Shown piece after piece: positions 10,892-30,018 of a DNA stretch of 32,000 bases. The number at the start of each line of letters is the position of its first letter. The first letter of the stretch is position 1. Origin of the DNA: Corynebacterium glutamicum ATCC 13032 (GTDB taxonomy: Bacteria; Actinomycetota; Actinomycetes; Mycobacteriales; Mycobacteriaceae); contig NC_003450.3 of assembly GCF_000011325.1 (NCBI RefSeq), positions 570,001 to 602,000 of the forward strand. Reading direction: 5' to 3'. Below the pieces are notes generated by a model. The model made no database searches and had not been told where the DNA came from. It was given only the letters and a program-made list of their open reading frames with translations. Position numbers and translations under genes: made by a program.

Positions 10892-10915
10892 GCCTGTTTC
10901 TGTTTCGGAGGCATT

Positions 10916-11221: not shown

Positions 11222-11269
11222 AAAACTTCATTTTAGGTATCACAAAGGTGCCATAAGTCGCACCCTTTG

Positions 11270-12683: not shown

Positions 12684-14231
12684 ATGAGCGGATTAGTTGA
12701 CCCGGATAGTACTTTTTTAAAGACCATCGGAAAACTGAGCAACAGCTTGTCCATTGGTCGTGGAGTAGATCAAAAAGAGGTAATCCCCAAAGGCTGGAAC
12801 GCCCATTGGGAGGCAATTACAAAGCTTAAGAGAAGCTTTGACGCGATTCCTGCTGGGGAGCGGGTGCGTTTAGCTAAGAAAACCTCCAACCTGTTCCGTG
12901 GACGCTCCGATGCAGGTCACGGCCTAGATGTGGCAGCGCTTGGGGGAGTGATTGCCATTGATCCGGTCAATGCCACCGCCGATGTACAGGGCATGTGCAC
13001 GTATGAAGACCTGGTAGATGCCACTTTAAGTTATGGTCTGATGCCGTTGGTTGTGCCTCAACTGAAAACCATCACGCTTGGTGGCGCAGTGACCGGAATG
13101 GGCGTGGAATCCACATCCTTCCGCAACGGTTTGCCACACGAATCAGTGCTGGAGATGGATATTTTTACCGGCACTGGTGAGATCGTGACTTGCTCGCCCA
13201 CAGAAAATGTCGACCTTTACAGAGGTTTTCCCAACTCTTATGGTTCGCTGGGATACGCGGTGCGGCTAAAAATTGAGCTGGAACCAGTGCAAGATTACGT
13301 CCAGCTGCGCCACGTGCGCTTCAACGATTTAGAGTCTTTGACCAAAGCGATTGAGGAAGTCGCGTCTTCTCTGGAGTTTGATAACCAACCCGTCGATTAC
13401 CTTGACGGCGTGGTGTTTTCACCCACGGAAGCCTACTTAGTTCTTGGCACGCAAACCTCACAACCTGGCCCCACCAGCGATTACACCAGGGATTTAAGCT
13501 ACTACCGCTCCCTGCAACACCCAGAGGGCATCACCTATGACCGCCTGACAATCCGCGATTACATCTGGCGCTGGGACACCGACTGGTTCTGGTGTTCACG
13601 CGCATTCGGCACCCAAAACCCCGTGGTGCGCAAACTCTGGCCCAGGGATCTGCTGCGCTCGAGTTTCTATTGGAAGATCATCGGCTGGGATCGAAAATAC
13701 TCCATCGCTGATCGCCTGGAAGAGCGCAAAGGCCGCCCGGCTAGGGAACGGGTGGTCCAAGACGTGGAAGTTACGATTGATAAACTGCCAGAATTTTTGA
13801 AATGGTTCTTTGAAAGCAGCGACATCGAGCCGCTGTGGCTGTGCCCGATCAAGCTTCGGGAGGTACCAGGTAGTTCGGTTGGTGCTGGAGAAATTTTGAG
13901 CTCCGCTGAAGCAATCGACTCCGGTGCTGCTGAACACCCTTGGCCGCTGTATCCCTTGAAGAAGGACGTGCTGTGGGTCAACATCGGATTCTGGTCCTCA
14001 GTGCCGGTTGATCTGATGGGCTCCGATGCACCAGAGGGAGCATTTAACAGAGAAATCGAACGCGTCATGGCAGAGCTAGGCGGACATAAATCGCTGTACT
14101 CCGAAGCGTTCTACACCAGGGAAGACTTTGAAAAACTTTATGGCGGAACCATCCCGGCGCTGCTAAAAAAGCAGTGGGATCCCCACAGCCGATTCCCCGG
14201 TTTGTATGAAAAGACAGTAAAAGGCGCCTAG
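12684..14231 (+). CDS. FAD-binding oxidoreductase (PCMH/FAD_binding_4 type; BfaA / DHCR24-like)
   Basis: 515 aa. FAD-binding segment is TITLGGAVTGMGVESTSFRNGLPHESVLEMDIFTGTGEIVTC. Starts 18 nt after the eccB stop. Confidence 0.8.
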   Translation: MSGLVDPDSTFLKTIGKLSNSLSIGRGVDQKEVIPKGWNAHWEAITKLKRSFDAIPAGERVRLAKKTSNLFRGRSDAGHGLDVAALGGVIAIDPVNATADVQGMCTYEDLVDATLSYGLMPLVVPQLKTITLGGAVTGMGVESTSFRNGLPHESVLEMDIFTGTGEIVTCSPTENVDLYRGFPNSYGSLGYAVRLKIELEPVQDYVQLRHVRFNDLESLTKAIEEVASSLEFDNQPVDYLDGVVFSPTEAYLVLGTQTSQPGPTSDYTRDLSYYRSLQHPEGITYDRLTIRDYIWRWDTDWFWCSRAFGTQNPVVRKLWPRDLLRSSFYWKIIGWDRKYSIADRLEERKGRPARERVVQDVEVTIDKLPEFLKWFFESSDIEPLWLCPIKLREVPGSSVGAGEILSSAEAIDSGAAEHPWPLYPLKKDVLWVNIGFWSSVPVDLMGSDAPEGAFNREIERVMAELGGHKSLYSEAFYTREDFEKLYGGTIPALLKKQWDPHSRFPGLYEKTVKGA

Positions 14232-14315
14232 GATCGCTCACTGTAGGTAGAGGCTTGTGGTCACTACTTGTGGCCACATTTTAAAAAAATGCACAAGAAG
14301 AGAAAGCAAAGCATT

Positions 14316-15623
14316 ATGAGTAACGCCGTAGCGCAGGACCTCATGACCATCGCCGACATCGTCGAGGCCACGACCACTGCACCCATCCCATTCCACATCA
14401 CTGCCTTCGATGGAAGCTTCACTGGCCCTGAAGATGCTCCCTACCAGCTGTTTGTTGCCAACACGGATGCAGTATCCTACATCGCAACAGCGCCAGGAGA
14501 TTTGGGTTTGGCACGTGCCTACCTCATGGGAGACCTCATCGTGGAAGGTGAGCATCCCGGCCATCCTTATGGGATCTTTGATGCGTTGAAGGAGTTCTAC
14601 CGCTGCTTCAAACGCCCAGATGCATCCACCACCTTGCAGATCATGTGGACTCTGCGGAAAATGAATGCCTTAAAATTCCAGGAAATTCCACCAATGGAAC
14701 AAGCCCCTGCATGGCGTAAAGCACTGATCAACGGGCTAGCATCCAGGCACTCGAAATCCCGCGACAAGAAAGCCATTAGCTACCACTACGACGTGGGCAA
14801 TGAGTTCTACTCCCTGTTTTTAGATGATTCCATGACCTATACCTGCGCGTATTATCCAACGCCAGAATCAAGTTTGGAAGAAGCCCAAGAAAACAAATAC
14901 CGCCTCATCTTTGAAAAACTGCGTCTGAAAGAAGGCGATCGCCTCCTAGACGTGGGATGCGGTTGGGGAGGCATGGTCCGCTACGCCGCCAAACACGGTG
15001 TGAAAGCCATCGGAGTTACGCTGTCTGAACAGCAATATGAGTGGGGTCAAGCAGAGATCAAACGCCAAGGTTTGGAAGACCTCGCGGAAATTCGCTTCAT
15101 GGATTACCGCGATGTTCCAGAAACTGGATTCGATGCGATCTCAGCAATCGGCATCATTGAACACATCGGTGTGAACAACTATCCCGACTACTTTGAATTG
15201 CTCAGCAGCAAACTCAAAACAGGCGGACTGATGCTCAACCACAGCATCACCTACCCAGACAACCGCCCCCGCCACGCAGGTGCATTTATTGATCGCTACA
15301 TTTTCCCCGACGGTGAACTCACTGGCTCTGGCACCCTGATCAAGCACATGCAGGACAACGGTTTCGAAGTGCTGCACGAAGAAAACCTCCGCTTTGATTA
15401 CCAACGCACCCTGCACGCGTGGTGCGAAAACCTCAAAGAAAATTGGGAGGAAGCAGTTGAACTCGCCGGTGAACCCACTGCACGACTCTTTGGCCTGTAC
15501 ATGGCAGGTTCGGAATGGGGATTTGCCCACAACATCGTCCAGCTGCACCAAGTACTGGGTGTGAAACTCGATGAGCAGGGAAGTCGCGGAGAAGTTCCTG
15601 AAAGAATGTGGTGGACTATCTAA
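14316..15623 (+). CDS. SAM-dependent methyltransferase of the cyclopropane-fatty-acyl-phospholipid synthase family (BfaB/UfaA1-like)
   Basis: SAM motif I LLDVGCGWGGM and the CMAS-family core (YHYDVGNEFYSLFLD, YQRTLHAWCENL). The start is uncertain: TTG 14268, ATG 14289 or ATG 14316. I chose 14316 because of the upstream AGAAGAGAAAG. Confidence 0.8.
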   Translation: MSNAVAQDLMTIADIVEATTTAPIPFHITAFDGSFTGPEDAPYQLFVANTDAVSYIATAPGDLGLARAYLMGDLIVEGEHPGHPYGIFDALKEFYRCFKRPDASTTLQIMWTLRKMNALKFQEIPPMEQAPAWRKALINGLASRHSKSRDKKAISYHYDVGNEFYSLFLDDSMTYTCAYYPTPESSLEEAQENKYRLIFEKLRLKEGDRLLDVGCGWGGMVRYAAKHGVKAIGVTLSEQQYEWGQAEIKRQGLEDLAEIRFMDYRDVPETGFDAISAIGIIEHIGVNNYPDYFELLSSKLKTGGLMLNHSITYPDNRPRHAGAFIDRYIFPDGELTGSGTLIKHMQDNGFEVLHEENLRFDYQRTLHAWCENLKENWEEAVELAGEPTARLFGLYMAGSEWGFAHNIVQLHQVLGVKLDEQGSRGEVPERMWWTI

Positions 15624-15822
15624 AGAAACAATGTTTCTTTTTAAGGTTCCCTAGGGGCAGGAGTTAATTGTAGGTAAACTCGACTAGCAATTAGCGACTG
15701 TCCCATTTCCCACCTGCTTTTGCGGATTTCAACACTTTCAGGATGCATCTGTAACTATGCCCATGCCACACCCCATGTTTATCGATGTCTCCTTCCCACC
15801 CGCGGAGACCTGTAGTTAACCC

Positions 15823-16251
15823 ATGGGCACGATGCGAGAAATGGTCAGTGACCGCATTGACCGACTACAAGAAGCACACGCGCGATCAAAGCAGAAGAAG
15901 TTCGGCTTCTTAGTTCGGCCAGGCACCCTGATCCTTGGATGGTTGGTCACGATCATCGGTCTGATCACCATTCCACTTCCCGGCCAAGGCTGGCTGACCA
16001 CCTTCATTGGTGTGGGCATTTTGTCTCTGGAGCTTAAATGGGCGAAGAACCTCCTGGCCTGGGGAGTGCATCAGTATGATCGCTTCTTCACCTGGTACGG
16101 CAAGAAATCATTCCGCTTCCGCATGGCGATGTTGGCACTGATGATTCTGCTGATTTGGGTGGTGTTCATCGTGACATTTTGGTTGATGTGGCACGCCGGA
16201 ACTATCCCGTGGGCAGATGAGTTCTTCACCTGGCTTGGGTTGAGCCGCTAG
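15823..16251 (+). CDS. Small membrane protein of the PGPGW type (two hydrophobic hairpins)
   Basis: 142 aa with TIPLPGQGWLTTFIGVGILSLEL, similar to the PGPGW motif family, and four hydrophobic helices. Confidence 0.6.
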   Translation: MGTMREMVSDRIDRLQEAHARSKQKKFGFLVRPGTLILGWLVTIIGLITIPLPGQGWLTTFIGVGILSLELKWAKNLLAWGVHQYDRFFTWYGKKSFRFRMAMLALMILLIWVVFIVTFWLMWHAGTIPWADEFFTWLGLSR

Positions 16252-16395: not shown

Positions 16396-17640
16396 TTAAG
16401 TGATAACACTTGAGCTAGCTTTTTGAAAGGCCGAGTGATGATGAATTCGGCGTAGTCCCATCAGCACAGCTAACACTGCGAGCAACCCAACAATGATTGC
16501 GGTAACTAGGATGCCCCGCTCCCGTGGAGAATCATCCGGCGGCGTGGGAACACTTAGTGCGATCTCATGAACCAGGGGAGTGGTGGGATAGATTTCTTGA
16601 GTAAGTGCCAGGTAGGGATCAATAGCGCCTCTTGCAGGGTCGATGCTGTTGAAGATTCGTGCACGAATTTCATAGGGTGTGGCAAAGGGAAAATGCTGGC
16701 GAAGCAGTGCAGCTGTGGCGCTGACAACTGGAGCGGCAAAACTGGTGCCCTCGAAGGGGCTTTCGCCAGCGGTGGTGATCATGTGGCTGGCGAAGCCGTC
16801 GCCACGCGGTGATAGACCAGCCTGAATGTGGCTTGGTGCAGAGAGGATTTGTTGGTTGCCAGGCATGGAATATTCTGCAAGCGTGTGAGAATCAAAACGT
16901 GCCGACACAGAGAGCACAGTGTCTGAATGTGCAGGATAAACGGTAGATCCAACTGGACAATCCTGCCCGAGGTTTCCTGCTGCTGCCACCACTATCACCC
17001 CTTGAAGTTCTGCTCTGTTAAGAGCATCCGTCAGAGGCTGGAACGATGCGGCCTCGTCGGGTGATTGGGGCAAACAGGACACCACGGAAATATTGATCAC
17101 GTGGGCACCGGAATCGAGAGCTCGGTGGATGGATTCCGCCAGGGTGCTCAGCGTTCCGACGTTGGAATCTTCACGAGTACGCACATATGAGCTGGTTTGT
17201 TTAATGGAGATGATTCCGGAATCTGGGGCGACACCGATATAAGGATCGGAGCTGCCGTCATATGGCCAGCCGGTGCCGGGGTTTCCTTGGGAGGCGATGA
17301 TTCCGGCGACGATGGTGCCGTGGCCGTCGCAATCGATAAGTTCACCTGGCACATCGGGGCTTTGGTGGGCGCCCACGAAATCACCGCCGGGAATTAAGTG
17401 GGGCAGACGTGGATGCAGGGATACTCCGGTGTCGATGACTGCCACCATCACACCGGCGCCAGTTGCTAGTTGGTGAGCTTGGGATAATGACTGCGAAAGG
17501 TGTTCATCTAAAACTGCGGAGGAAGGATCGGCGATCGCTACCTCGGGGCAAGCGAGAGCTTCTACTTCCTGTGCCCTCGTCGCTGGAGTGGAAGCCAACA
17601 TAAACAGAGCGGCCAAGCTAACCGCGATGAGTCTGCGCAT
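16396..17640 (-). CDS. mycP: Mycosin, T7SS subtilisin-like serine protease MycP
   Basis: Asp/His/Ser triad contexts VAVIDTGV, DGHGTIVAGIIA and GTSFAAPVVSATAALL. Signal peptide MRRLIAVSLAALFMLASTPATRA and a C-terminal TM anchor. Start taken at ATG 17640, 1 nt after the eccD stop. The track ORF extends to 17757. Confidence 0.9.
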   Translation of the reverse strand: MRRLIAVSLAALFMLASTPATRAQEVEALACPEVAIADPSSAVLDEHLSQSLSQAHQLATGAGVMVAVIDTGVSLHPRLPHLIPGGDFVGAHQSPDVPGELIDCDGHGTIVAGIIASQGNPGTGWPYDGSSDPYIGVAPDSGIISIKQTSSYVRTREDSNVGTLSTLAESIHRALDSGAHVINISVVSCLPQSPDEAASFQPLTDALNRAELQGVIVVAAAGNLGQDCPVGSTVYPAHSDTVLSVSARFDSHTLAEYSMPGNQQILSAPSHIQAGLSPRGDGFASHMITTAGESPFEGTSFAAPVVSATAALLRQHFPFATPYEIRARIFNSIDPARGAIDPYLALTQEIYPTTPLVHEIALSVPTPPDDSPRERGILVTAIIVGLLAVLAVLMGLRRIHHHSAFQKASSSVIT

Positions 17641-17641
17641 C

Positions 17642-19024
17642 TTATCCACCGAATCCAATATCAAGACCGCGCAGCATTCCAAATACATCCAGCAAATGCA
17701 GTGCGAGTGGCAGACTAGCTGCAAGACACAGTGATTCCAACCTTTCAAGCCACACAATGGTGGTGGGTTCCAGCGTGGGGACTGTACTGATCCACAATGC
17801 CACGCTGACCAGCACAGCGATGATAACCACAGAACCGATCAGTGCAATTAGTGAACCTGATCGGCTTGCGGATAACGCCATGGAAATGAAACCAAGGGCA
17901 GATAACCCCATCAATGTCCACGTGGGAATTGGTGCTTGATGACGATTAGCGTGAAGCAGCGAAGCCACCGCGATGCATAAACTAAAAACGGTGGTTGTCC
18001 AGGTGCCCGGGGTAACCGACAACAACGCCAAAGGCCCGCTCAAAACGCCAAGGCCAAGGATCTGGGCGTCGAAAAGCGTCTTTGTTGTTTTTATTCTTTT
18101 CTCGGGATCAGTCATGGTGAGGTCGCTGACGGAGAGATCTTCGCCGGCGGTGGGAAGCGATGGGACGCGCAGGCCTGCTAGCGATGCTGCGATTTTCGGG
18201 GCGAAGCACATGGTGATGGTGGAAGCGGTGACCGTGATCGCTGCTGGACCGCTGAAATCTTCGGTAGCTTTGAGCTTCCACAGAGTGGTGGTTGCTGCAA
18301 GGACTAAGAGACCGAGCCCCAATGTGGACAGTGTTGCCACCAGAAGAATTGCTGGACGATACACCACATGAACCAGCAGCGAACTGGCAAGAATAGTGCA
18401 CGCGCCAGCGAAAATCGTCCAGGTAAGCGCGCCGGGAGAAGTCCCAGAAGTGCCTGCAACCAGCACTGATACCGCTCCGCCTGCGCCCAAGATCAGGGTA
18501 ATCGGCAGGACGTTTCGAAGGATCGGGGTGTGCGCGGGTGGGAGCCACAGAAGCAGTAGAGCGCAGATTGCGACGAAGATTCCCATGCGGCCGGGCACAA
18601 TAATTCCGGAGGCAGCAGGACTTGTCATTAACACGGCAGCCCCGATGAGCCCCGCGAAAGTCATCAATTCCACGAGGTGCCCGGCGCGGTTCGTGGAAGA
18701 AAACTCCACCAACGCTTCGGCGACATCACGCAACACGGGGGCTTCCAAGTCCCTTTCGGGTGAAAGGACCACCACGCTGCCTTGTTCCACTTGTGTTTCT
18801 GCAAGCGGAATCCCGCAATCAATGGGACTTCCCGCAGCAGTGTGAGCCACCCACGGCCTGGAAATCCGGGGTGCATCGGTGAGTTCTAAAATTTCATCCA
18901 AAATGTCCGCCAGACTCGAACCTGCAGGTAGCGCCACATCAGCCACAGCAGCGGGCGCATCGCCAACGGTGAGATCTATGCGGATGCTCACGCGCAGCGC
19001 ATTATCGATTGCCAAAATAACCAA
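17642..19024 (-). CDS. eccD: Type VII secretion system membrane component EccD
   Basis: 460 aa. N-terminal soluble ubiquitin-like segment (RVSIRIDLTVGD...ADVALPAGSSLADIL) followed by about 11 TM helices. The start is ambiguous: TTG 19024, TTG 19015 or GTG 18991. Confidence 0.85.
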   Translation of the reverse strand: MVILAIDNALRVSIRIDLTVGDAPAAVADVALPAGSSLADILDEILELTDAPRISRPWVAHTAAGSPIDCGIPLAETQVEQGSVVVLSPERDLEAPVLRDVAEALVEFSSTNRAGHLVELMTFAGLIGAAVLMTSPAASGIIVPGRMGIFVAICALLLLWLPPAHTPILRNVLPITLILGAGGAVSVLVAGTSGTSPGALTWTIFAGACTILASSLLVHVVYRPAILLVATLSTLGLGLLVLAATTTLWKLKATEDFSGPAAITVTASTITMCFAPKIAASLAGLRVPSLPTAGEDLSVSDLTMTDPEKRIKTTKTLFDAQILGLGVLSGPLALLSVTPGTWTTTVFSLCIAVASLLHANRHQAPIPTWTLMGLSALGFISMALSASRSGSLIALIGSVVIIAVLVSVALWISTVPTLEPTTIVWLERLESLCLAASLPLALHLLDVFGMLRGLDIGFGG

Positions 19025-19121: not shown

Positions 19122-19151
19122 GGGAACCTTTTGGCCGTTTTTCCAGTCAAA
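19122..19151 (+). promoter_or_regulatory. ECF-sigma-type promoter copy P2 (GGGAAC-N18-GTCAAA) upstream of eccC
   Basis: GGGAACcttttggccgtttttccaGTCAAAca, 87 nt before ATG 19239. Confidence 0.6.
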
Positions 19152-19238
19152 CACTTATTGACAGCCTTTTCTTTTTTAGATGACTTTCTAAAAAGCACGA
19201 CACTAGGCAAGACAAGAAGAACTCGGGGGAGTTAGAAA

Positions 19239-22200
19239 ATGACAACATCAGTGGAGCGACAAGAACAATCACCAACTGGTTACATCGTGGAACCGGTGAC
19301 GTGGCCAGAACGCGATCCGGCGCCACCGCTGCCAACGGAGCCGCTGATCGCTGAAGCTGTGCCACAAGCGGTACGTCCAGCGCCGAAACCACTGCTCAAA
19401 GTATTGATGCCTGTGATCATGGTGGCCATGGTGGCCATGGTGCTGGCGATGGTGGCGCTGATGATCCTTACCAGTGGGCAGTTAAATCCTATGGTCTTGA
19501 TTTTTCCAATGATGATGGGTATGAGCGTCCTGATGATGTTCGCCCCACCTGAAGGTGACGATACTGATGAGGTTCGGCGCACCTATTTACGTCACCTGGG
19601 TGCATTGCGGGCGAAAGCGACAGATCACGCGGCGATGCAGCGCAGGCATGAATGGCACAGGCATCCTGATCCAGCAACCTTGTGGTCCACGTTGGGGACT
19701 CGGCGGATGTGGGAGCGCACCCAAGATGATCAAGATTGTTTGGAAATCCGTTTTGGTTTGGGCGTGACCAGGCTTGATCCGGCTATTAACGTGAGTGATT
19801 CGGGTGCGCCGGAGGATCTTGATCCGGTATGTGCGGTGTCGTTGCGTCACACCATTCGGGATGTGGGGTCGGTGCAGAGCATGCCGGTGTCGGTTCAGTT
19901 GCAGGCGTTTCGATTCATTGGGCTCAACGGTGCGGGCGCACATGATCTGGCGCGGGCGCTGGTTGTGCAGTTGTTGTACCACCACGGACCGGAGGTGGTG
20001 GGTATCAAAGCGATCGGGGAGTCGGGTTGGGAGTGGCTGAAATGGGTACCGCACACCCGCGATCCGGAGAAGGCAGCCTTTCGGATTTTGCTGGTGGATT
20101 CCGTGTTGACCAACGGCACCGAAAGCTTCATTGATGACCCCCAATGGACCACGATCATCAACGTTGGCGCGCAGACCAGCACCGCATTGGGCCAGCTGGC
20201 AGAGGATGAAGGGCTGCTGTTGCACGTCGATAAGCGTCTGCATGTGGCTACCGCGCACGGCGCGGAGGAGCTGGGCACGCCGGATGCGGTTAGCGCTGAG
20301 CTTGCGGAGGTTTTTGGCCGCCGTTTGACTGCTTTTCGACGCACAACCACAGCACACGCGGCGAGCTCTGGTGAATTGCTGTCCCTTTTGGGGATTGATG
20401 ACGTGGAGCATTTAACTCCAGAAACCTTATGGATGAACAAGCGCACGCAGCCTAAAACTCGTTTGGCGGTGCCCTTGGGTTTGAACGCGTCCGGTCGGCC
20501 GATGGTACTGGATCTGAAGGAATCGGCGCACGGCGGAATGGGACCACATGGGCTGTGCATCGGCGCTACTGGCAGCGGAAAATCCGAACTTTTAAGAACA
20601 CTTGTTCTAGGTTTGACGATCACCCATTCGCCTGAGGAATTGAATCTGGTGTTGGTGGATTTTAAAGGTGGCGCCACCTTTTTGGGCTTCGAGCAGCTGC
20701 CTCACACGTCCGCGGTGATCACCAACTTGGAGGAAGAGTCCGTGCTGGTGGAGCGCATGCATGATGCGATTTCGGGTGAGATGAACCGCAGGCAAGAAGC
20801 CCTTCGGCAGGCAGGTGGCTGCGCCAATGTGGATGAATACAACCAGCGTGATGGTGTGAAACCGATGCCCGCGCTGCTCATTGTGATCGATGAATTCTCG
20901 GAGTTGCTTGGCCAACATCCCGATTTCGCAGACCTATTCGTCGCCGTCGGACGCTTGGGCCGTTCCTTACACATCCATTTGTTGCTCGCTAGCCAACGTC
21001 TGGAAGAGGGGCGGTTGCGCGGATTGGATTCCCACTTGTCCTACCGGATCGGCTTAAAAACCTTTTCCGCATCCGAATCGCGCCAGGTATTAGGCATCAC
21101 TGACGCATATCAATTACCCAGCCAACCCGGCGCAGGTTTCCTCAAATCCGACGTCGACACCGTCACCCGCTTCCAAGCAAGTTATGTATCCGGCCCCATC
21201 ATGCGTCGCCATCACCTCGCACCAACGCAGTCCCGGGTGCGCCTTTTTACCAGCTGGGAGGAACCCAAAGAGGAGGTGATTGTCGAGCAAAGCACCGAGA
21301 CGCTTATCGACGCCGTGGTTGCGCGCGCCATCAGCGCCGCGAAGTTGCGGGGGTTAAGCGCTCATCGCATCTGGTTGCCACCGTTGCCGGCAGAAGTTTC
21401 GATTGGTGCTTTGGCTGATGATGTCGGTGAGCTAAGCGCCGTGATCGGGATGATCGATAGACCCTATCAACAGCGACAAGATCCATTGCTGATTGATTTT
21501 TCTCTCAACGGTGGAAGCGGACACTGGGCTATTTGTGGTGGGCCCCAAACCGGAAAGTCCACGGCATTGCGCAGCATCGTGATCTCCATGGCAGCAACGC
21601 ATAGCACAGAAAACATCCGCTTTTACGTGCTGGATTTATCTGGAACCTCCCTGGAAAATCTCTCCCGGCTGCCTCATGTTGCAGGCGTGGCAGGACGCAA
21701 AGATCCAGAGAAAGTCCGCCGAGTTGTCGATGAAGTACGAGGCCTGATCAACCACCCTGAACAACGCCACACCTTCCTTATTGTGGACGGCTGGCACACC
21801 ATCACCCAAGAATTCGACGAGCTTTTCGACGCCTTCGTAGACATCGCCGCCAACGGCCTTGCCTCGCGGGTGCATTTAGTTTTAAGCACTCAACGCTGGA
21901 GTTCCATCCGCCCCGCGGTCCGCGATCTGGTGACTGGCAGAATCGAATTGAAACTCGGCGAAGCCATGGATTCGGTGATTGATCGTAAAGCTCAGCTTCG
22001 GATCCCGTCGAAACCTGGGCGTGGCCTCAACCTGGATAAAGAACACATCCTTATTGCTCATGCGTCTGGCCAAGACATCGCCCAGGTATGCGTCATGGCC
22101 GATGGGCAAGGATGGCAGCAGGTCCCACAATTAAGCGTGCTGCCTGCGCATATCCTGCTTCACGAGCTTGAGCTTTCTGCGACACCTGGCATCCCGATTG

Positions 22201-22865
22201 CACGGGGAGGTGCTGAACTATCCACGCTGACGTGGGATCCAGAATCCAGCCGCCACCTTCTAGCTTTTGGTTCTCAAGGTTGTGGCAAATCCTCGCTGAT
22301 CCGCACGATTGTCACGGGTCTGACAATTGTGGGGCGGGAGAAAGCACGCTTGGTATTTTTCGACCTTCGACGCACCCACCTAGGCCTGGTCCCCGAAGAC
22401 ATGTTGGCTGCTTATTGTGCTACTTCCACAGCAGTCCACAACACCATCAAAGACATGGTGGCTACGCTATCCGCCAGACTTCCAGGACCTGATATCACCG
22501 CCCAAGAACTCCGCGATCGTTCCTGGTGGCAGGGGCCCGACATTTATTTAGTTATCGATGATTATGATTTGCTCCCCGCCGGCACCCTGCACCCGCTGCG
22601 CGAGATCATCCCGCATGCAAGAGACGTAGGCCTGCACATCGTGCTCACCCGCAAAGCCGGTGGCGCCTCGCGTGCGCTCTACGATCCGGTCATGTCCGAG
22701 ATCAAGGACCAATCACCGCACGTCGTGCTTTTCGACGCCGACCGCGACGAAGGCGCTATCCTAGGCATCAAACCCACAGCACAACCACCAGGACGTGCCA
22801 CGATGTCCATCCGTGGTGAAAACATCGGTGTTGCACAGATGGCACGCATAGGTGATGACTCATGA
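19239..22865 (+). CDS. eccC: Type VII secretion system FtsK/SpoIIIE-family ATPase EccC
   Basis: 1208 aa. Two N-terminal TM helices. Three P-loops: GATGSGKSE, GGPQTGKST and GSQGCGKSS. Walker B is canonical only in domain 1 (LLIVIDEFSEL); domains 2 and 3 have LIVDGW and LVIDDYD. Confidence 0.93.
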   Translation: MTTSVERQEQSPTGYIVEPVTWPERDPAPPLPTEPLIAEAVPQAVRPAPKPLLKVLMPVIMVAMVAMVLAMVALMILTSGQLNPMVLIFPMMMGMSVLMMFAPPEGDDTDEVRRTYLRHLGALRAKATDHAAMQRRHEWHRHPDPATLWSTLGTRRMWERTQDDQDCLEIRFGLGVTRLDPAINVSDSGAPEDLDPVCAVSLRHTIRDVGSVQSMPVSVQLQAFRFIGLNGAGAHDLARALVVQLLYHHGPEVVGIKAIGESGWEWLKWVPHTRDPEKAAFRILLVDSVLTNGTESFIDDPQWTTIINVGAQTSTALGQLAEDEGLLLHVDKRLHVATAHGAEELGTPDAVSAELAEVFGRRLTAFRRTTTAHAASSGELLSLLGIDDVEHLTPETLWMNKRTQPKTRLAVPLGLNASGRPMVLDLKESAHGGMGPHGLCIGATGSGKSELLRTLVLGLTITHSPEELNLVLVDFKGGATFLGFEQLPHTSAVITNLEEESVLVERMHDAISGEMNRRQEALRQAGGCANVDEYNQRDGVKPMPALLIVIDEFSELLGQHPDFADLFVAVGRLGRSLHIHLLLASQRLEEGRLRGLDSHLSYRIGLKTFSASESRQVLGITDAYQLPSQPGAGFLKSDVDTVTRFQASYVSGPIMRRHHLAPTQSRVRLFTSWEEPKEEVIVEQSTETLIDAVVARAISAAKLRGLSAHRIWLPPLPAEVSIGALADDVGELSAVIGMIDRPYQQRQDPLLIDFSLNGGSGHWAICGGPQTGKSTALRSIVISMAATHSTENIRFYVLDLSGTSLENLSRLPHVAGVAGRKDPEKVRRVVDEVRGLINHPEQRHTFLIVDGWHTITQEFDELFDAFVDIAANGLASRVHLVLSTQRWSSIRPAVRDLVTGRIELKLGEAMDSVIDRKAQLRIPSKPGRGLNLDKEHILIAHASGQDIAQVCVMADGQGWQQVPQLSVLPAHILLHELELSATPGIPIARGGAELSTLTWDPESSRHLLAFGSQGCGKSSLIRTIVTGLTIVGREKARLVFFDLRRTHLGLVPEDMLAAYCATSTAVHNTIKDMVATLSARLPGPDITAQELRDRSWWQGPDIYLVIDDYDLLPAGTLHPLREIIPHARDVGLHIVLTRKAGGASRALYDPVMSEIKDQSPHVVLFDADRDEGAILGIKPTAQPPGRATMSIRGENIGVAQMARIGDDS

Positions 22866-23764
22866 GCACCCAAACAATCACCATCACAGTCCTAGAAACC
22901 GCCACCATCTTTGACGGCCCTGAAACCATCTACCGCTATGACCTGGCTGCCGAAGGCATCCTTGATGGATGGGCTCACTCTGCTGTGCTGGATCAAGTGA
23001 AACAAATAGCAGGTGAAAACTGGCCGACTGTTGAGATCGTGGTGGATGGCACCGACAACGTAGTCAATGCACTCACCTCCATGTTTGCTTCCAAAGGCGT
23101 GACCTGCGGTGGGGTTGGAGTAGAAGCACCTCCCGTTGCGGAGGAACCACCGAAAATTAAACGGCCCACGAGTGGAAAACAAGTCCGCCAGTTCTACGGC
23201 ATCAAGCCACTACACCTGTTGTTGGTCAGCATATTGGTTGGTTCTATTGCTGGTATTTGGGTGATTTCGGGTTTCACTGGGCCAGTGGACTCACGGCCGG
23301 TAGATAAGGTGGCGGAGATTTCAACGCAGGGGGAGACGTCGATAAGCAATCAACCCCAACCCCAGCCCACCGTGCTCGTGACCGAGGACCTGCTTATTGA
23401 GGCGCCATTTGGTTTTGAAATGCGAAGCGACGAACAGTCGCGCTACCTGGAAGGCCCCGACCCGAATCTGCGCATCCACGTGGGCGTCGATCCGCTGCAC
23501 GGCGCGGACGCCGCGCTGGTTGCCGAAGAGCTGCGCCGCCTGATCACCGAGGATCCTTCGCTGGAGGAAATTCCCGCAGGGGAGTGGGGCGAGAAAACCA
23601 CCATCGACTACCGCGAAACACCCGGCGATGGCTCTCATGTGCTGTGGGTGACCTGGTTTGACACCGACCGACAACTCAACGTTGGGTGCCATAGCAAAGC
23701 CGCCGAAACCCTTGTTCACAAGGCACAATGCCGAAATGTGATTGAGCATCTGACGCTGAAATGA
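22862..23764 (+). CDS. T7SS-associated single-pass membrane protein (Rv3446c-like by position)
   Basis: 300 aa. ATGA overlap with eccC. One TM helix (LLLVSILVGSIAGIWVISGF). It occupies the slot held by Rv3446c between eccC4 and esxU in mycobacterial ESX-4 (from memory). Confidence 0.55.
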   Translation: MSTQTITITVLETATIFDGPETIYRYDLAAEGILDGWAHSAVLDQVKQIAGENWPTVEIVVDGTDNVVNALTSMFASKGVTCGGVGVEAPPVAEEPPKIKRPTSGKQVRQFYGIKPLHLLLVSILVGSIAGIWVISGFTGPVDSRPVDKVAEISTQGETSISNQPQPQPTVLVTEDLLIEAPFGFEMRSDEQSRYLEGPDPNLRIHVGVDPLHGADAALVAEELRRLITEDPSLEEIPAGEWGEKTTIDYRETPGDGSHVLWVTWFDTDRQLNVGCHSKAAETLVHKAQCRNVIEHLTLK

Positions 23765-23814: not shown

Positions 23815-23844
23815 GGGAACCAAAACGCGACTTTCACAGTCCAA
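23815..23844 (+). promoter_or_regulatory. ECF-sigma-type promoter copy P3 (GGGAAC-N18-GTCCAA) upstream of the WXG100 pair
   Basis: GGGAACcaaaacgcgactttcacaGTCCAAca, 90 nt before ATG 23935. Confidence 0.6.
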
Positions 23845-23934
23845 CATAAATAGGAAAGGCAAAAAGCTTTTCCGGGGGAACACCAGAGAAACTGGTGAAC
23901 TTTAAAATCATTTCGTTCGAGGAGGGGCGAACCA

Positions 23935-24261
23935 ATGTCAAATCTTTTCAGGACAGAATCCGATGTGATGCTCGCGACGGCGAGCCAGGTAGACGACATT
24001 AACGATCAAGTTCAGGGCGAACTGAGCCGACTTCGCGGAGTTGTTGATTCCGTACGCGGCAGCTGGGCCGGCCAAGCACAGGTCAGCTTCGACTCCCTGA
24101 TGAACCGCTGGAACTCATCAGCACGCCAACTGCAGGAAGCACTGGCGTCCATCTCTGACAACATCCGCCACAACGCGCGCAGCTTCGAAAACACTGAAGC
24201 CGACAACTCCCAGGCATTCAACGCTGTCGGTGCTGGCGACGGCGCTGGACTCCCACTGTAA
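23935..24261 (+). CDS. WXG100 family T7SS substrate (EsxB/EsxU-like, longer partner)
   Basis: 108 aa. W44-A45-G46 at the helix-turn-helix position. C-terminal FENTEADNSQAF fits the hydrophobic-xxx-D/E-x7-hydrophobic export motif. SD GAGGAGGGG. Confidence 0.88.
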   Translation: MSNLFRTESDVMLATASQVDDINDQVQGELSRLRGVVDSVRGSWAGQAQVSFDSLMNRWNSSARQLQEALASISDNIRHNARSFENTEADNSQAFNAVGAGDGAGLPL

Positions 24262-24292
24262 AACTCTCAAAGAAGAATAAGGAACCAAGAAC

Positions 24293-24583
24293 ATGGACAT
24301 GATCCGCTATGAATTCGGTGCCATCCAAGGTGCCGCAACCGACATCAACTCCACCTCAGGTCGAATCAACTCTCTACTTGATGGCCTGAAATCTCAACTG
24401 CAGCCGATGGTAGCCAGCTGGGAGGGCGAATCCAGCGAAGCATACAGCGAGGCGCAGCTGAAGTGGGACCGCGCAGCAGCAGAACTCAACACCATCCTTG
24501 CCACCATCTCCAACACCGTTGCCCAAGGCGCTGAACGTATGTCTGATGTGAACCGCCGCGCAGCAGCAAGCTGGGGTGCATAA
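24293..24583 (+). CDS. WXG100 family T7SS substrate (EsxA/EsxT-like, shorter partner)
   Basis: 96 aa with W43-E44-G45. Starts 31 nt after its partner gene. Confidence 0.88.
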   Translation: MDMIRYEFGAIQGAATDINSTSGRINSLLDGLKSQLQPMVASWEGESSEAYSEAQLKWDRAAAELNTILATISNTVAQGAERMSDVNRRAAASWGA

Positions 24584-25990: not shown

Positions 25991-26095
25991 GCATTCTTGG
26001 GGTTTCTTGTGACTTAGGGACTTGGGTTTACACAGCTCAACCGAAGAAAAATTGTTCAATAGAGTTTTGAACAATGCGATCTTGGCCAGGCCGTG

Positions 26096-26101
26096 CATAA
26101 T
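26096..26101 (+). promoter_or_regulatory. Candidate -10 box (CATAAT) giving a leaderless glmM transcript
   Basis: CATAAT ends 7 nt before ATG 26109. No SD in taatcgc. Confidence 0.4.
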
Positions 26102-26108
26102 TAATCGC

Positions 26109-27452
26109 ATGACTCGACTATTTGGAACTGATGGCGTCCGCGGACTAGCCAATGAAGTACTCACCGCACCTTTGGCCTTGAAGCTGGGGGCCGCTGCAGC
26201 TCACGTACTTACCGCAGAGAAACGGGTAGATGGACGTCGCCCGGTTGCGATCGTTGGTAGGGATCCTCGAGTCTCTGGAGAGATGCTCGCGGCAGCACTT
26301 TCAGCAGGCATGGCCAGCCAGGGTGTTGATGTCATTCGTGTTGGTGTCATCCCAACCCCTGCTGTTGCATTCCTCACCGATGATTATGGCGCTGACATGG
26401 GCGTGATGATTTCTGCATCCCACAACCCAATGCCGGACAACGGAATCAAGTTCTTCTCTGCAGGTGGACACAAGCTTCCAGACCATGTGGAAGACGAGAT
26501 TGAGCGTGTTATGGACAGCTTGCCAGCAGAAGGCCCAACAGGGCATGGAGTTGGCCGTGTCATCGAAGAAGCAACCGATGCACAGGACCGTTACCTAGAG
26601 CACCTGAAGGAAGCTGTTCCTACGTCACTTGAAGGCATCAAGATTGTTGTGGATGCAGCCAATGGTGCGGCAAGTGTTGTAGCTCCAACGGCTTATGAGG
26701 CTGCGGGTGCAACTGTAATTGCTATTCATAACAAGCCAGACTCATACAACATCAACATGGACTGCGGTTCCACCCACATTGATCAGGTGCAGGCGGCAGT
26801 CCTGAAGCACGGTGCTGACCTTGGACTCGCGCATGACGGTGATGCTGACCGTTGTTTGGCTGTGGACAAGGATGGCAACCTTGTTGATGGTGACCAAATC
26901 ATGGCGCTGTTAGCCATTGCGATGAAAGAAAACGGCGAGCTGCGCAAGAACACCCTCGTGGGCACTGTCATGAGCAACCTGGGATTGAAGATTGCTATGG
27001 ATGAAGCCGGAATTACACTGCGTACCACCAAGGTAGGAGACCGCTACGTGCTGGAAGACCTCAATGCAGGTGGATTCAGCCTGGGCGGCGAGCAATCTGG
27101 CCACATTGTTCTTCCAGATCATGGCACCACTGGCGATGGAACTTTGACTGGTCTTTCCATCATGGCGCGCATGGCTGAAACCGGAAAGTCCTTGGGCGAG
27201 TTGGCACAAGCTATGACGGTGCTGCCACAGGTTCTGATCAATGTGCCAGTTTCGGATAAGTCCACCATCGTGAGCCACCCAAGCGTTGTGGCTGCGATCG
27301 CGGAAGCAGAAGCTGAGTTGGGCGCCACCGGTCGCGTTCTTCTTCGTGCTTCTGGCACCGAAGAGCTTTTCCGCGTGATGGTTGAGGCTGGAGACAAGGA
27401 ACAAGCTCGTCGTATCGCGGGACGTCTTGCTGCAGTGGTTGCAGAAGTCTAA
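26109..27452 (+). CDS. glmM: Phosphoglucosamine mutase
   Basis: 447 aa from [12 protein letters not shown]. Phosphoserine loop [22 protein letters not shown]-type metal loop (AHDGDADRC). The track ORF from 26022 is an extension. Confidence 0.95.
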
Positions 27453-27539
27453 TTCACTTCAGTCACAGCGCAACGCGATCTGCGGGGTCGAACCTGCCCA
27501 AAGGCTACTTATATCGAATTAGGCAGGTTTGACGCTTGA

Positions 27540-27587
27540 GGGGCCACATATAGCATCACCAAATGTGCATATGTGACCCCTTTTTCT
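27540..27587 (+). terminator. Rho-independent terminator after glmM
   Basis: GGGGCCACATAT (27540-27551) pairs with ATATGTGACCCC (27569-27580), one mismatch, followed by TTTTT. A second hairpin lies just upstream at 27489-27533. Confidence 0.7.
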
Positions 27588-27789
27588 CGCCTGTTAACTT
27601 GCTGGTCAAGGATCCGTCCCCGGGGAAGTGGGAAATGCTAAAATGGAACGAGCATTCGCATAATGGTCATAAATTAGCGCGAATATTCGATCAATTTTGG
27701 CGGAAAGTTCAGAAAATGATCGAGAATTTGCATTGCCAGTCCTGCGCAGGACTGGAACACACATCCTTCGAGAAAAGTTTCCCCAAATT

Positions 27790-27819
27790 GGGAACCTAAA
27801 CGCCTTTGAGACAGTCAAA
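27790..27819 (+). promoter_or_regulatory. ECF-sigma-type promoter copy P4 (GGGAAC-N18-GTCAAA) upstream of the orphan three-gene operon
   Basis: GGGAACctaaacgcctttgagacaGTCAAAcc, 72 nt before GTG 27892. Confidence 0.6.
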
Positions 27820-27891
27820 CCATAGTGGAGGGCAAAAATACTGCCACGAAACTGACATTGGTTGACACATCTTAAAAAGGGGGACTTTTAG

Positions 27892-28197
27892 GTGTCTGGA
27901 TTCGAACTTAAAATTGGGGAATCTTTAGCGACACTGCGCGGGCTTCTGGGGGAAACCGCGCAGCAACACAGCATTCACCGGCAACGCGTGCCTTACTATT
28001 CACCTTCGGCCTCTGGCCGAGGATTTAGCGCGCACGGCGTGGCCTTGGCGGACATGTTTGAGGGGCTGCACAGGGGCGTCGAGAAGCGTATCGACGCTTT
28101 TACCCAAACAACCCAAGCCGCCGAGGAAGAAGTTAAACGATTCGACAATACCGACAAAGTTTTTGGTGCCGGATTTGATGGGATTGATCCGAAGTGA
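27892..28197 (+). CDS. Hypothetical 101-aa helix-loop-helix protein (size and layout of small T7SS substrates; no WXG)
   Basis: GTG start preceded by AAGGGGGA. Two amphipathic segments separated by PYYSPSASGRGFS. GTGA overlap with the next gene. Confidence 0.6.
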   Translation: MSGFELKIGESLATLRGLLGETAQQHSIHRQRVPYYSPSASGRGFSAHGVALADMFEGLHRGVEKRIDAFTQTTQAAEEEVKRFDNTDKVFGAGFDGIDPK

Positions 28198-29705
28198 ATG
28201 ATCCTTTAGCCGGCTACGGAGCAGTGATCTCCGCACTACAAGGCGCCAGTGGTGGGATGTATCGCGGACCGGCGAAATCCGAAGGCCAGTTGCGCGAGAT
28301 GTACCAAACCATCGAAGGGCTAGACACCAGCTCGTTGCGCGAAGCTGCCGAAGCAGCAGTGGGCGGAACGAACGAAGCCAGAATACAAGGGTGGGTCGGC
28401 CCGCTCTTGAAATTCTTCGGGACGGTTGGCGGGGGAATGATCGCCACGGAGATAGCTGAACGGGCAGTCGATTGGTTCAAAAACCGTAATGATGTGGAAG
28501 AAGTCAGCGAAGCCGCTGATAAAGCCGCCGATGCGATCGACTCCACTGTCACAGAGTCCGACCAGGGCATGATGCACATTATCCAGCAGCTCTTGGACAT
28601 TGTGTCTACGTTGACGCAGATTCTTGGCAGCATGGATCGGGGGAAATTTCCTCAAGAATTCCGGGACTGTGTCCAAACTGGAGCTGATCTTATTGACCAG
28701 GCAGGGGACATGCTTGAAGGATTGTGCGCTGATCGAGATGATGCGATTTCACAGTGTTTCTCCGCGTTGACCGATCATGGAAAACAAGTTTGTGAAACTG
28801 AGCCAAAGCCGTTGTGTAGTGCAGCTTCTGGGGGTTCATCTGGTGGAGCGACTTCTTCGGCTGCGGCCTCTTCAGGTGGTTCAAGCTCGAGCACTGCTAG
28901 CTCTGGGAGTTCTGGCGGATCGAGCAGTGCTGCGGATAGTTCGACGTCGACCAATGCTGAATCCAGTGTTGAAAAGGAAAAGACCACACCTGCTGCCGTT
29001 GAGAAACCTGACGAGAAACCAGTGGAGAAGCCGGTTGAAAAGACGCCAGAAAAGCCGGTAGAAAAACCTGTCGAGAAGCAAGAGTGTGAAGAAAAGCCTG
29101 ACCCTGACCCGGAAAAATGCAAAACAGAGCCGGTCGAGTGTGAGCCAACACCGAAACCTGAAACAGAGCCTGAACCAAAACCGACACCCACGCCCACACC
29201 CGGAACACCAACACCAATACCTGAGCTAGAGACTGAGGATTGTGAACCTGGCAAGGAGACGGGCACAGACTCAGAATCTGAATCGGAAGAGTGCGCCCCC
29301 GAGCTCAATGACGTTCCAGAAGAGTCGGATCTGATTGGGCAACTCATCAAGGGAGCAATCGGTATTGGGATTGTTGTTGTAGGCGTTGGGCTGTTGGTGA
29401 ATTTCCTGGAGCAGTGCGTCCCTGTGATTGAAGAAGTACCTGTGCCGGAGCCCGAGCCTATACCTGAACCCGCTCCGCAGCCTGAGCCAACTTCAGTGAA
29501 ACCACCAGAGTCTGAACTAGATAAGGTGGCTGAGCCTGCGCCGAAGCCAATTCCACAAGCTAATTACACTGCTGCTGCAGCAACTAACTATTCCGCTCCC
29601 GCGCACGCTCCCGTTGTCCCAATTACGCCGGCAGCACCTGAAGTTCCGGCAGCACCAGAAGTGCCTGCACCGGCGGTTAATCTTCACAAGGCCGGCGGGT
29701 GGTAG
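28194..29705 (+). CDS. Hypothetical 503-aa single-TM protein: helical N-domain, Ser/Gly tract, PVEK repeats, acidic Cys-containing spacer, Pro-rich tail
   Basis: Long ORF translationally coupled on both sides. TM helix LIGQLIKGAIGIGIVVVGVGLLVNFL. 11 Cys. No N-terminal signal peptide. Confidence 0.7.
   Translation: MNDPLAGYGAVISALQGASGGMYRGPAKSEGQLREMYQTIEGLDTSSLREAAEAAVGGTNEARIQGWVGPLLKFFGTVGGGMIATEIAERAVDWFKNRNDVEEVSEAADKAADAIDSTVTESDQGMMHIIQQLLDIVSTLTQILGSMDRGKFPQEFRDCVQTGADLIDQAGDMLEGLCADRDDAISQCFSALTDHGKQVCETEPKPLCSAASGGSSGGATSSAAASSGGSSSSTASSGSSGGSSSAADSSTSTNAESSVEKEKTTPAAVEKPDEKPVEKPVEKTPEKPVEKPVEKQECEEKPDPDPEKCKTEPVECEPTPKPETEPEPKPTPTPTPGTPTPIPELETEDCEPGKETGTDSESESEECAPELNDVPEESDLIGQLIKGAIGIGIVVVGVGLLVNFLEQCVPVIEEVPVPEPEPIPEPAPQPEPTSVKPPESELDKVAEPAPKPIPQANYTAAAATNYSAPAHAPVVPITPAAPEVPAAPEVPAPAVNLHKAGGW
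28998..29078 (+). repeat. In-frame 12-nt tandem repeat encoding VEK-PDEK-PVEK-PVEK-TPEK-PVEK-PVEK
   Basis: The units use different synonymous codons (cca gtg gag aag / ccg gtt gaa aag / ccg gta gaa aaa / cct gtc gag aag). Conservation is therefore at the protein level. Confidence 0.85.
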
Positions 29706-29935
29706 CGGTGGAGTATGCGGAATTTCTCCAGCAGTTTCGGGAGCGCACAGCTAAGCGGATGGAAGAGTTCGAAAAGGCGATCGCTTCGACTCAACGAAAG
29801 CTTGATGATGTGGCGGAAGAGGTGGAAAAGAAGAAACAGCCTGTTGTGGTTGAGTCTCTGGAAAAACCGATTCGGATGGCAAGGCGACAACAGAGAGGTC
29901 GGGGGCCTGTGAAATCGGTACTGCGGGAAGCCTAA
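29699..29935 (+). CDS. Hypothetical 78-aa charged coiled-coil protein
   Basis: GTG 29699 (or in-frame GTG 29708) overlaps or abuts the TAG of the 503-aa gene. Heptad-like EEFEKAIASTQRKLDDVAEEVEKKK and a basic C-terminus. Confidence 0.5.
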   Translation: MVAVEYAEFLQQFRERTAKRMEEFEKAIASTQRKLDDVAEEVEKKKQPVVVESLEKPIRMARRQQRGRGPVKSVLREA

Positions 29936-29945
29936 AACTAGAAAG

Positions 29946-30003
29946 GGGTGATTTTGGTTGGTACAAAACCGCAAGACCGCGTTAGTACCAAACAAAATCA
30001 CCC
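29946..30003. terminator. Long hairpin between convergent genes (bidirectional terminator candidate)
   Basis: 19-nt arms GGGTGATTTTGGTTGGTAC / GTACCAAACAAAATCACCC (one mismatch) with a 20-nt loop. Confidence 0.6.
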
Positions 30004-30018
30004 ACTAAGAAAAGCGAA

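Follow-up and report, generated by a model that had tools for sequence, protein, structure and literature searches.

In the 32,000-nucleotide stretch of the Corynebacterium glutamicum ATCC 13032 chromosome analysed here (NC_003450.3, positions 570,001 to 602,000; hereafter the window, to whose numbering all coordinates refer), a type VII secretion system (T7SS) cluster of the ESX-4 type is followed by rplM, rpsI and glmM, and then by an operon of three open reading frames (ORFs), named genes 1, 2 and 3. We consider this operon to be the corynebacterial form of an ancient ESX-4-associated operon of the Mycobacteriales, located downstream of rplM-rpsI-glmM and probably coding for an exported pair of proteins, a reading to which we assign a probability of roughly 0.6.

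An earlier note on this DNA, made from its letters alone, had taken the operon for an orphan, that is, for a candidate new substrate or accessory module of ESX-4. This interpretation pointed largely the right way, but the kind of module is not new, because the positionally equivalent Mab_3747c-3746c-3745c of M. abscessus has been published as operon 13 of the SigM regulon (Canestrari et al., 2026; PMC13491425). The latter operon is a direct and SigM-induced target of SigM, lies a few genes from esxT/esxU, and was modelled as a heterodimeric putative ESX-4 substrate, with Mab_3747c described as 'EsxB-like' and carrying YxxxD/E, Mab_3746c as 'PE25/PPE41/EspG5-like' and carrying both WxG and YxxxD/E, and Mab_3745c as uncharacterised (PMC13491425). 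The operon of the window shares with it the small-large-third organization of three genes near esx genes and the SigM-type promoter, as judged from the -35 element, whereas its proteins have no conserved WxG, and F in place of Y. The M. tuberculosis counterpart is presumably Rv3440c-Rv3439c-Rv3438, of which the earlier note had plausibly named the first two. The corynebacterial variant, together with its conserved C-terminal motif, is undescribed: no literature was found on its genes, which would be Cgl0584-0586 when counting on from the numbering of the 2025 C. glutamicum T7SS paper, where neither these genes nor SigM are named.

Promoter and synteny shared with ESX-4

The motif GGGAACC-N16-AGTCNAAC occurs in four exact copies in the window, against 0.01 expected, and at least four copies were found in 0 of 100 shuffles. 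As the earlier note had stated, it is common to eccC, the esx pair and gene 1 (Table 1); the copy before gene 1, termed P4, ends 72 nt upstream of the start codon. A strict regular expression recovered such a site ahead of the gene 1 homologue at 27 of 34 loci, and near-variants could be seen by eye at four of the remaining seven (L035, L040, L053 and L103). The site before gene 1 is kept in Corynebacterium, where its form is GGGAACC-N16-AGTC(T/C/A)AA, and in Rhodococcus and other Mycobacteriales of high guanine plus cytosine (GC) content, where it reads GGGAAC(C/G)-N15-16-GCGTCCAA, the high-GC metagenome loci being placed in this order by the similarity of glmM alone. The same site lies upstream of the esxA-like gene in 12 of 21 loci. 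Since this promoter, of extracytoplasmic function (ECF) type, recurs before the operon and the esx genes across genera, co-regulation of the operon with the T7SS, as the earlier note had it, is strongly suggested by sequence, and the conservation of the promoter across loci is the strongest evidence for it.

The identity of the sigma factor is the more conditional part of that claim. The -35 element of the window motif, to which our comparison refers, agrees with that of the M. abscessus SigM site, GGAACCG (PMC13491425), and we infer that SigM acts at these promoters. Two sites published for C. glutamicum, the SigC consensus GGGAACT/CGACTA and the SigH-like consensus GGAA/GTT once assigned to SigM, are both unlike the window motif (PMC5483222). 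For this reason, the corynebacterial SigM regulon may be an ESX-4 regulon.

Co-occurrence was scored at loci anchored on the C-terminal 200 amino acids of glmM, which gave 33 genome loci, and, in a second scan, on the Rhodococcus glmM, which gave 80 metagenome loci. ESX-4 was scored as present when an esx pair or eccC lay upstream, and the operon when hidden Markov models of the gene 1 and gene 2 families matched downstream. Among 58 informative loci from genomes and metagenomes, operon and ESX-4 were concordant in 54, with both present in 20 and both absent in 34; two further loci have ESX-4 alone and only two have the operon alone. These counts came out in favour of the association with ESX-4 that the earlier note had proposed to check by co-occurrence and synteny, but they are not phylogenetically independent, so that the association is suggestive rather than proof. 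This, together with the small number of informative contrasts (Dietzia, L038, L054, L052 and L014), is a first point to be set against our reading.

The operon lies downstream of rplM-rpsI-glmM, in small-large-small order, not only in the window but also at 20 further ESX-positive loci, and the linkage beside glmM, suspected before to be ancient, is seen in Corynebacterium, Rhodococcus and many high-GC loci. The clearest contrast within the order comes from three Dietzia loci that carry neither partner: glmM adjoins a hydrolase gene after a gap of about 90 bp, with the operon absent at this site, and no esx or eccC gene turned up in the available stretch upstream of glmM, which spans 8 kb at one locus and only 3.5 kb and 1 kb at the other two. 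At two loci, L038 and L054, the operon is present but esx genes directly upstream are missing, and L052 has eccC without the operon. In Pseudonocardia oceani (L014, 10662-11422), an ESX-4-like locus stands beside glmM, and two small Ala-rich genes (102 and 151 amino acids) replace the operon; their similarity to it is undetectable, and the regular expression found no SigM-type motif before them. As a side observation, one contig labelled as a metagenome-assembled genome of 'uncultured Campylobacter sp.' (L003, CAMIME010000025.1) carries a corynebacterial-type rplM-rpsI-glmM (77% identity), homologues of genes 1, 2 and 3 and a SigM-type promoter, and is probably a mis-binned corynebacterial contig.

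Not all copies of the promoter belong to the T7SS. The fourth precedes an unrelated GNAT-like gene, so the regulon is not purely one of secretion, which counts for a rival explanation in which the operon belongs to an ECF (SigM-type) stress regulon and codes for an envelope protein that is independent of the T7SS and inserted or exported by another route. L038 and L054 speak for it as well, as does the failure of the corynebacterial proteins to match the WXG100 and EspC models. We hold this explanation to be quite unlikely, in view of the tight association with ESX-4 at the level of loci, including the Dietzia loci with neither, of relatives within the WXG100/EspC clan that carry canonical export motifs, and of the absence of a Sec or Tat signal peptide. 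The GNAT-like gene itself (10433-11299, minus strand), so labelled by inspection of its translation and not by a family search, is divided by an in-frame TGA (10918-10916) into ORFs of 101 (11221-10916) and 152 amino acids (10891-10433), which could reflect a nonsense mutation or a pseudogene, or else a sequencing error.

Probable remote relatedness to the EspC/WXG100 clan

Gene 1 codes for a protein of 101 amino acids that was modelled by AlphaFold2 as a helix-loop-helix hairpin (helices 3-32 and 47-94; predicted local distance difference test, pLDDT, of 73), in agreement with the helix-turn-helix of about 100 amino acids that is typical of WXG100. Its SGRGF loop (residues 41-45), its C-terminal KRFDNTDKVF and its lack of a WxG motif are as previously noted: in the family alignment, the inter-helix turn reads S/F-G-x-G-F, in which G42 and G44 are conserved and Trp is lacking. 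When aligned with hhalign, RFDNTD falls onto SFENTE of the EsxA-type protein of the window, that is, onto the position of the T7SS motif YxxxD/E. D88 is invariant across the family, and corynebacteria have F, V or I at the first position of the motif, where most high-GC relatives have Y; the EsxA-type protein of the window likewise has F at this position.

The relationship to known T7SS proteins becomes apparent in Rhodococcus and the other high-GC loci. There, the loop of the small protein reads FGxxxxGRxY, and its YxxxD is canonical (YEQQD, YTERD and others); in the large protein, RYDEQRGLD precedes a likewise canonical WxG, whose W is invariant (W89 in alignment A6). Among twelve high-GC small proteins, three match the Pfam EspC model (PF10824), the best with 31.8 bits over the full model length against a cut-off of 23.5, and two match WXG100. 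The profile of the small proteins matches ESXA, EsxOP and CFP-10 over their full length (E from 1e-3 to 1e-2), and that of the large proteins matches CFP-10 (E=5.4e-5) and M. abscessus EsxF (1.4e-3). In most Mycobacteriales, the two halves of the bipartite export signal appear to be shared out, YxxxD on the small partner and WxG on the large one, an arrangement also seen in EsxB/EsxA, PE/PPE and EspC/EspA.

The corynebacterial families are connected to these relatives by profile-profile comparison. First, the gene 1 family aligns with the high-GC small-protein family with P=2.7e-5 over 96 columns. Second, the N-terminal domain of gene 2 aligns with the high-GC large domain with P=7-8e-5 over 169-182 columns, pairing GLD with GLD and C-x-tD-x-A with C-x-DRD-x-AI. 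The comparison covered high-GC Mycobacteriales relatives only; a metagenome scan with the Rhodococcus large protein gave no match. These alignments suggest a remote place for both proteins in the EspC/WXG100 clan, with gene 1 as its putative small partner. The EspC- or WXG100-like character previously proposed for gene 1 holds by way of its high-GC relatives (PF10824, solved WXG100 proteins), but the window protein itself matches no model.

The family of gene 2 could only be recovered by an exhaustive search, as word-indexed searches with its N-terminal domain returned one match when the domain was used alone and three when it was used as a profile of 41 sequences. A phmmer search of 1.84 billion proteins with residues 1-202 yielded 102 representative relatives at E<=1e-3. 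Nearly all matches sit at the extreme N-terminus of proteins that, when full-length, have about 400-675 amino acids. Of 20 clusters sampled, 14 have a named source, which in every case is a Corynebacterium 'hypothetical protein'. Conserved residues of the domain are G21, P26, G42-L-D, W94, C178-x-D-R-D-x-A-I-x2-C188 and C200. AlphaFold2 gave an all-helical model (pLDDT 90.2; predicted template modelling score 0.78) with a long hairpin formed by residues 81-146 and 153-201.

Two candidates for a WXG-type element in this domain were rejected. W67-V68-G69 (nt 28392-28400), noted before, is present in the sequence, but the family as a whole does not keep it and the model places it within a helix, so that it is no WxG turn. 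Likewise, a weak WXG100 match on residues 109-143 (E=0.062) falls on the middle of one long helix. The domain is also distinct from several known families: its N-terminus, MNDPLAGYG, together with the lack of a Pfam match and a fold match to PPE41 of only E ~0.2, does not identify it as PPE (PF00823); for LXG there was no Pfam or NCBIfam match and no structure among the 50 gene 2 Foldseek matches listed; and EspA_EspE (PF18879) matched neither gene 2 nor its relatives. When the corynebacterial domain was searched by sequence against the PDB, the matches were mostly to designed helical proteins and coiled-coil constructs, and none was to a T7SS protein.

The operon can be compared with characterised pairs. 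In EspC/EspA (espACD) and EspF/EspE of ESX-1, a YxxxD/E hairpin of about 100 amino acids is encoded with a larger WxG partner (~400 amino acids) and a third gene; here too a small hairpin protein goes with a larger one and a third gene, and relatives of gene 1 match PF10824 over its full length, which gene 1 itself does not reach. The order in espACD is large-small. In our operon, by contrast, the order is small-large, the system is ESX-4 and not ESX-1, and PF18879 is not matched. PE25/PPE41 (PDB 2g38, 4kxr, 4w4k) likewise joins a small hairpin to a helical domain of about 180-200 amino acids with a long hairpin, whereas the window proteins have no PE/PPE N-terminal motifs or Pfam matches, and the locus no EspG chaperone gene; both chains are among the weak Foldseek matches, where PPE41 (E ~0.2, template modelling scores of 0.39-0.44) stands alongside BAR-like and other long-helix proteins and scores no better than the BAR-domain ones. 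Finally, the EsxU/EsxT-type pair of the window itself (ExsI/Cgl0579-0580) has the same promoter type and locus, consists of helical hairpins and carries SFENTE where RFDNTD of gene 1 aligns, one difference being that the putative partner of gene 1 is a multi-region protein of 503 amino acids, not a second hairpin of 100.

Several further results weigh against an exported pair of this kind. None of the three proteins reached the threshold of any Pfam or NCBIfam model; gene 1 and five other corynebacterial homologues had no Pfam match at E<=1, WXG100 (PF06013) included, and gene 1 did not match PF10824. Gene 1 was not significantly similar to the local Esx families (P=0.0085), whereas the two Esx families matched each other with P=1.6e-10. 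In Foldseek searches of the PDB, nothing was found at E<=0.001 either for the N-terminal domain of gene 2 (best E 0.097) or for gene 1 (best E 2.6), although nine of the 25 weak matches of gene 1 are T7SS hairpins, with CFP-10, EsxGH, EsxEF and PE25 enriched. The P-values that link the families, at about 1e-4 to 1e-5, are moderate and come from small alignments. The large corynebacterial partner has no WxG turn, and gene 1 has F, V or I in place of Y, so that the canonical bipartite signal is incomplete. To our knowledge, a hydrophobic helix followed by a long tail, as described below for gene 2, is unusual among actinobacterial T7SS substrates. Lastly, a published study puts the regulation of the C. 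glutamicum T7SS under Fur, and SigM is absent from its text.

Architecture and possible fates of the gene 2 protein

Beyond its N-terminal domain, gene 2 has the layout that had been read from the sequence before: a Ser/Gly tract, PVEK repeats, an acidic Cys-containing spacer, a hydrophobic helix and a tail with two AAPEVP, with 11 Cys in 503 amino acids (Table 1). Inspection of the sequence revealed no Sec or Tat signal peptide. Throughout the family, the spacer is rich in Pro, Ala, Glu and Ser and unusually rich in Cys, with 4.2 Cys per 100 amino acids against 1.1 in the tail. The hydrophobic helix was found in 57 of 76 full-length representatives; its flanks are acidic on both sides, with mean net charges of -2.8 and -3.9, and a positive-inside signal is therefore absent. 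The tail has a family motif resembling VIPPPxELxxVxEPxPPPKK. These features set gene 2 apart from the high-GC large proteins, which have few Cys, are mostly without the hydrophobic helix and soluble, and end in L(A/S)EAGPL-COOH.

The corynebacterial proteins end instead in (R/H/K)KAGxW-COOH, a motif present in 76 of 88 full-length representatives and nearly invariant even though the body of the protein is hypervariable. An AG-x-hydrophobic-COOH pattern is common to both types of end. Two simpler explanations of the motif were considered. AAGG or GAGG lies about 7-10 nt upstream of the gene 3 start, and RKAGxW could be a mere by-product of this Shine-Dalgarno sequence and start; this is probably only partly true, as the segment has codon periodicity, its third codon positions varying freely, and as it persists where gene 3 does not overlap. 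Mimicry of an EsxA-type tail is unsupported, as Esx tails vary by lineage and do not co-vary with that of gene 2. As side observations on these tails, the EsxB-type proteins of corynebacterial ESX-4 (24293-24583 in the window; L001-L013) share the C-terminus A(A/N)SW(G/S/A), and the EsxA-type proteins have F/YxxxE and mostly end in GLxL.

Because the export signal is degenerate and a stalk, a helix and a tail have been acquired, gene 2 may be tethered rather than released, or it may be a non-secreted accessory protein. It is tempting to speculate, on the one hand, that an ESX-4 substrate pair has turned into a membrane-tethered surface protein, whose N-terminal module would be exported as a pair with gene 1, whose Cys-rich, acidic and Pro-rich stalk would be disulfide-linked or metal-binding, and whose Gly-rich helix with acidic flanks would hold the membrane, with RKAGxW-COOH left in the cytoplasm as a second docking signal for EccC or gene 3. 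We know of no class of T7SS-dependent anchored proteins with a C-terminal signal, and in this specific form the proposal is a tentative one that we think rather improbable.

On the other hand, and this is the main rival, gene 2 could be a membrane-anchored accessory or adaptor of ESX-4 that is not secreted at all, its N-terminal domain remaining in the cytoplasm bound to gene 1 and/or gene 3, where it would serve as a substrate receptor, a chaperone platform or a regulator of the EccC motor, with the Pro-rich tail as the sole part outside. A hydrophobic helix in a protein without signal peptide fits this arrangement, and the strictly kept extreme C-terminus and the conserved linear motif of the tail suggest docking. 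Moreover, no EccE, EccA or EspG was found among the ten neighbouring ORFs scanned, where only EccB, EccC, EccD and MycP occur, and co-regulation and synteny agree with it as well as with a substrate. Yet the high-GC relatives carry YxxxD and WxG and mostly have no hydrophobic helix; ten of the 11 Cys precede the helix, and the spacer-to-tail difference in Cys density is more typical of an extracytoplasmic segment; and acidic flanks on both sides are unlike those of a classical membrane anchor. We judge this alternative to be rather unlikely, at about the same level as the specific proposal above.

Conserved Cys in a helical N-terminal domain, a single membrane pass and an ECF promoter together also recall a feedback regulator of the sigma factor, either anti-sigma-like or signal-sensing, with the Cys as a redox sensor. 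This is very unlikely: the ZAS motif (HxxxCxxC) and any anti-sigma Pfam match are absent, no sigma factor gene was seen next to the operon on inspection of the window and flanks, and the relatives lack the helix and most Cys. Mycobacteria, furthermore, have a dedicated anti-SigM factor, RsmA, whose gene adjoins sigM (PMC13491425).

Returning to the exported pair, we propose the following mechanism. Transcription would start at an ECF promoter of a kind that is attributed to SigM in mycobacteria, as it would for eccC and the esx genes. Gene 1 would provide a helical hairpin of about 100 amino acids of the EspC/WXG100 clan, with a (Y/F/V)xxxD export motif ending helix 2; with the N-terminal domain of gene 2, we infer, it would form an Esx- or PE/PPE-like bundle, a heterodimer that EccC would recognise and ESX-4 would export. 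In corynebacteria, gene 2 would have lost the WxG turn and gained the Cys-rich spacer, the hydrophobic helix and the RKAGxW tail, and its topology would probably be that of an envelope-tethered protein. Gene 3, the weakest step, would be a co-translated helical partner, possibly a chaperone or adaptor.

Operon boundaries, neighbouring genes and implications

The three ORFs are coupled as had been described, by a GTGA overlap at 28194-28197 and by a GTG at 29699 overlapping the TAG at 29703-29705. The second junction may differ in one detail: gene 3 is a highly charged protein of 78 amino acids if translated from 29699, but its homologues begin MDFxxF, which favours GTG 29708 (MEYAEF, 75 amino acids), two bases past the gene 2 stop. 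Homologues at the same position in nine corynebacterial loci share the N-terminus (D/E)FxxFxxQFxxRTxKRMxDFE. A small third gene is present in seven of ten high-GC loci with a full-length large gene; its similarity to gene 3 is undetectable (P=0.15).

That the three ORFs arose by chance, or are pseudogenes decaying within a low-complexity region, as the lack of family annotations and the long low-complexity tracts of gene 2 might suggest, is refuted by conservation: 102 representative homologues keep the N- and C-terminal motifs, and the gene order and overlapping junctions of all three genes are maintained across species. The confident AlphaFold2 model also speaks against this explanation, to which we give hardly any credence.

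The operon is preceded by the AT-rich spacer after glmM reported earlier, which measures 439 bp (27453-27891; GC 0.466 at 27501-28000, against ~0.54 elsewhere) and is far longer than the ~80-270 bp of the six other corynebacterial loci in which it was measurable. The spacer holds a sigma-70-like site (27529-27556) and a probably spurious ORF of 78 amino acids (27563-27799), which overlaps the promoter. Rfam gave no RNA family in the window, spacer included, and phage and plasmid collections gave no match. Downstream, a hairpin between gene 3 and the convergent gene for a PETase-like hydrolase has a predicted RNA folding energy of -30.8 kcal/mol (z = -5.8; 0 of 200 shuffles equally stable) and likely marks the end of the operon as a bidirectional terminator.

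Table 1. Positions of the operon, its regions and the associated ESX-4 features in the window (GC ~54%).
Feature	Position (nt)	Strand	Remarks
Promoter copy	11299-11269	-	48 nt before GNAT-like gene, directed away from eccB
eccB	11406-12665		ESX-4 cluster
mycP	16396-17757	-	ESX-4 cluster
eccD	17642-19024	-	ESX-4 cluster
Promoter copy	19122-19152	+	87 nt before eccC start codon
eccC	19239-22865		ESX-4 cluster
Promoter copy	23815-23845	+	90 nt before esx pair start codon
esx pair	23935-24583		Two WXG100 genes, Pfam WXG100 match on both
glmM	26022-27452		Follows rplM and rpsI
Promoter copy P4	27790-27820	+	ECF (SigM-type); -35 GGGAACC, 16-nt spacer, -10 AGTCAAAC
Gene 1	27892-28197	+	101 aa
Gene 1 loop S41GRGF45	28012-28026	+	From family alignment
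Gene 1 F84-D-N-T-D88	28141-28155	+	Position of T7SS YxxxD/E motif
Gene 2	28194-29705	+	503 aa
Gene 2 N-terminal helical domain	28194-28808	+	aa 1-205
Gene 2 low-complexity spacer	28809-29330	+	Ser/Gly aa 209-252, PVEK 272-295, acidic Pro/Glu region
Gene 2 acidic spacer Cys			Residues 298, 309, 316, 350, 367
Gene 2 hydrophobic Gly-rich helix	29331-29408	+	aa 380-405, Kyte-Doolittle scan
Gene 2 Pro-rich tail	29409-29705	+	KPPESELDKVAEPAPKP motif aa 436-452, AAPEVP x2 aa 480-491
Gene 2 C-terminus H498-K-A-G-G-W503	29685-29702	+	Followed by stop codon
Gene 3	29699-29935	+	78 aa (75 aa if start is GTG 29708)
Hairpin	29944-30007		Likely bidirectional terminator

The layout of the ESX-4 cluster in the window agrees with that given for C. 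glutamicum ATCC 13032, whose T7SS is functional, with the neighbouring Esx protein as a secreted product (PMC12607788). Between eccB and the mycP/eccD/eccC group (12684-16251) lie three unrelated genes, for an FAD-binding oxidoreductase, a CMAS-type (mycolic acid cyclopropane synthase-like) methyltransferase and a PGPGW membrane protein. A 300-amino-acid ORF between eccC and the esx pair (22862-23764) has no Pfam match, and is kept at the same position in corynebacterial and Rhodococcus loci with 23-36% identity; presumably, it is the Rv3446c-like gene of ESX-4.

ESX-4 is regarded as the ancestral type VII system of actinobacteria and, as far as we know, its substrates beyond EsxU/EsxT are largely unproven. 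Because the operon travels with ESX-4 and with its promoter, from Corynebacterium through Rhodococcus to mycobacteria-like loci, it probably represents the most ancient module, whether accessory or substrate, that this system has, and it lends independent support to the substrate candidates from the M. abscessus SigM regulon. Being non-pathogenic, with a single T7SS and good genetics, C. glutamicum offers a tractable system in which secretion, topology and the roles of F84/D88 and W503 can be tested. If the corynebacterial SigM regulon is indeed the ESX-4 regulon, then the Fur control reported for C. glutamicum would be only part of the regulation of its T7SS.

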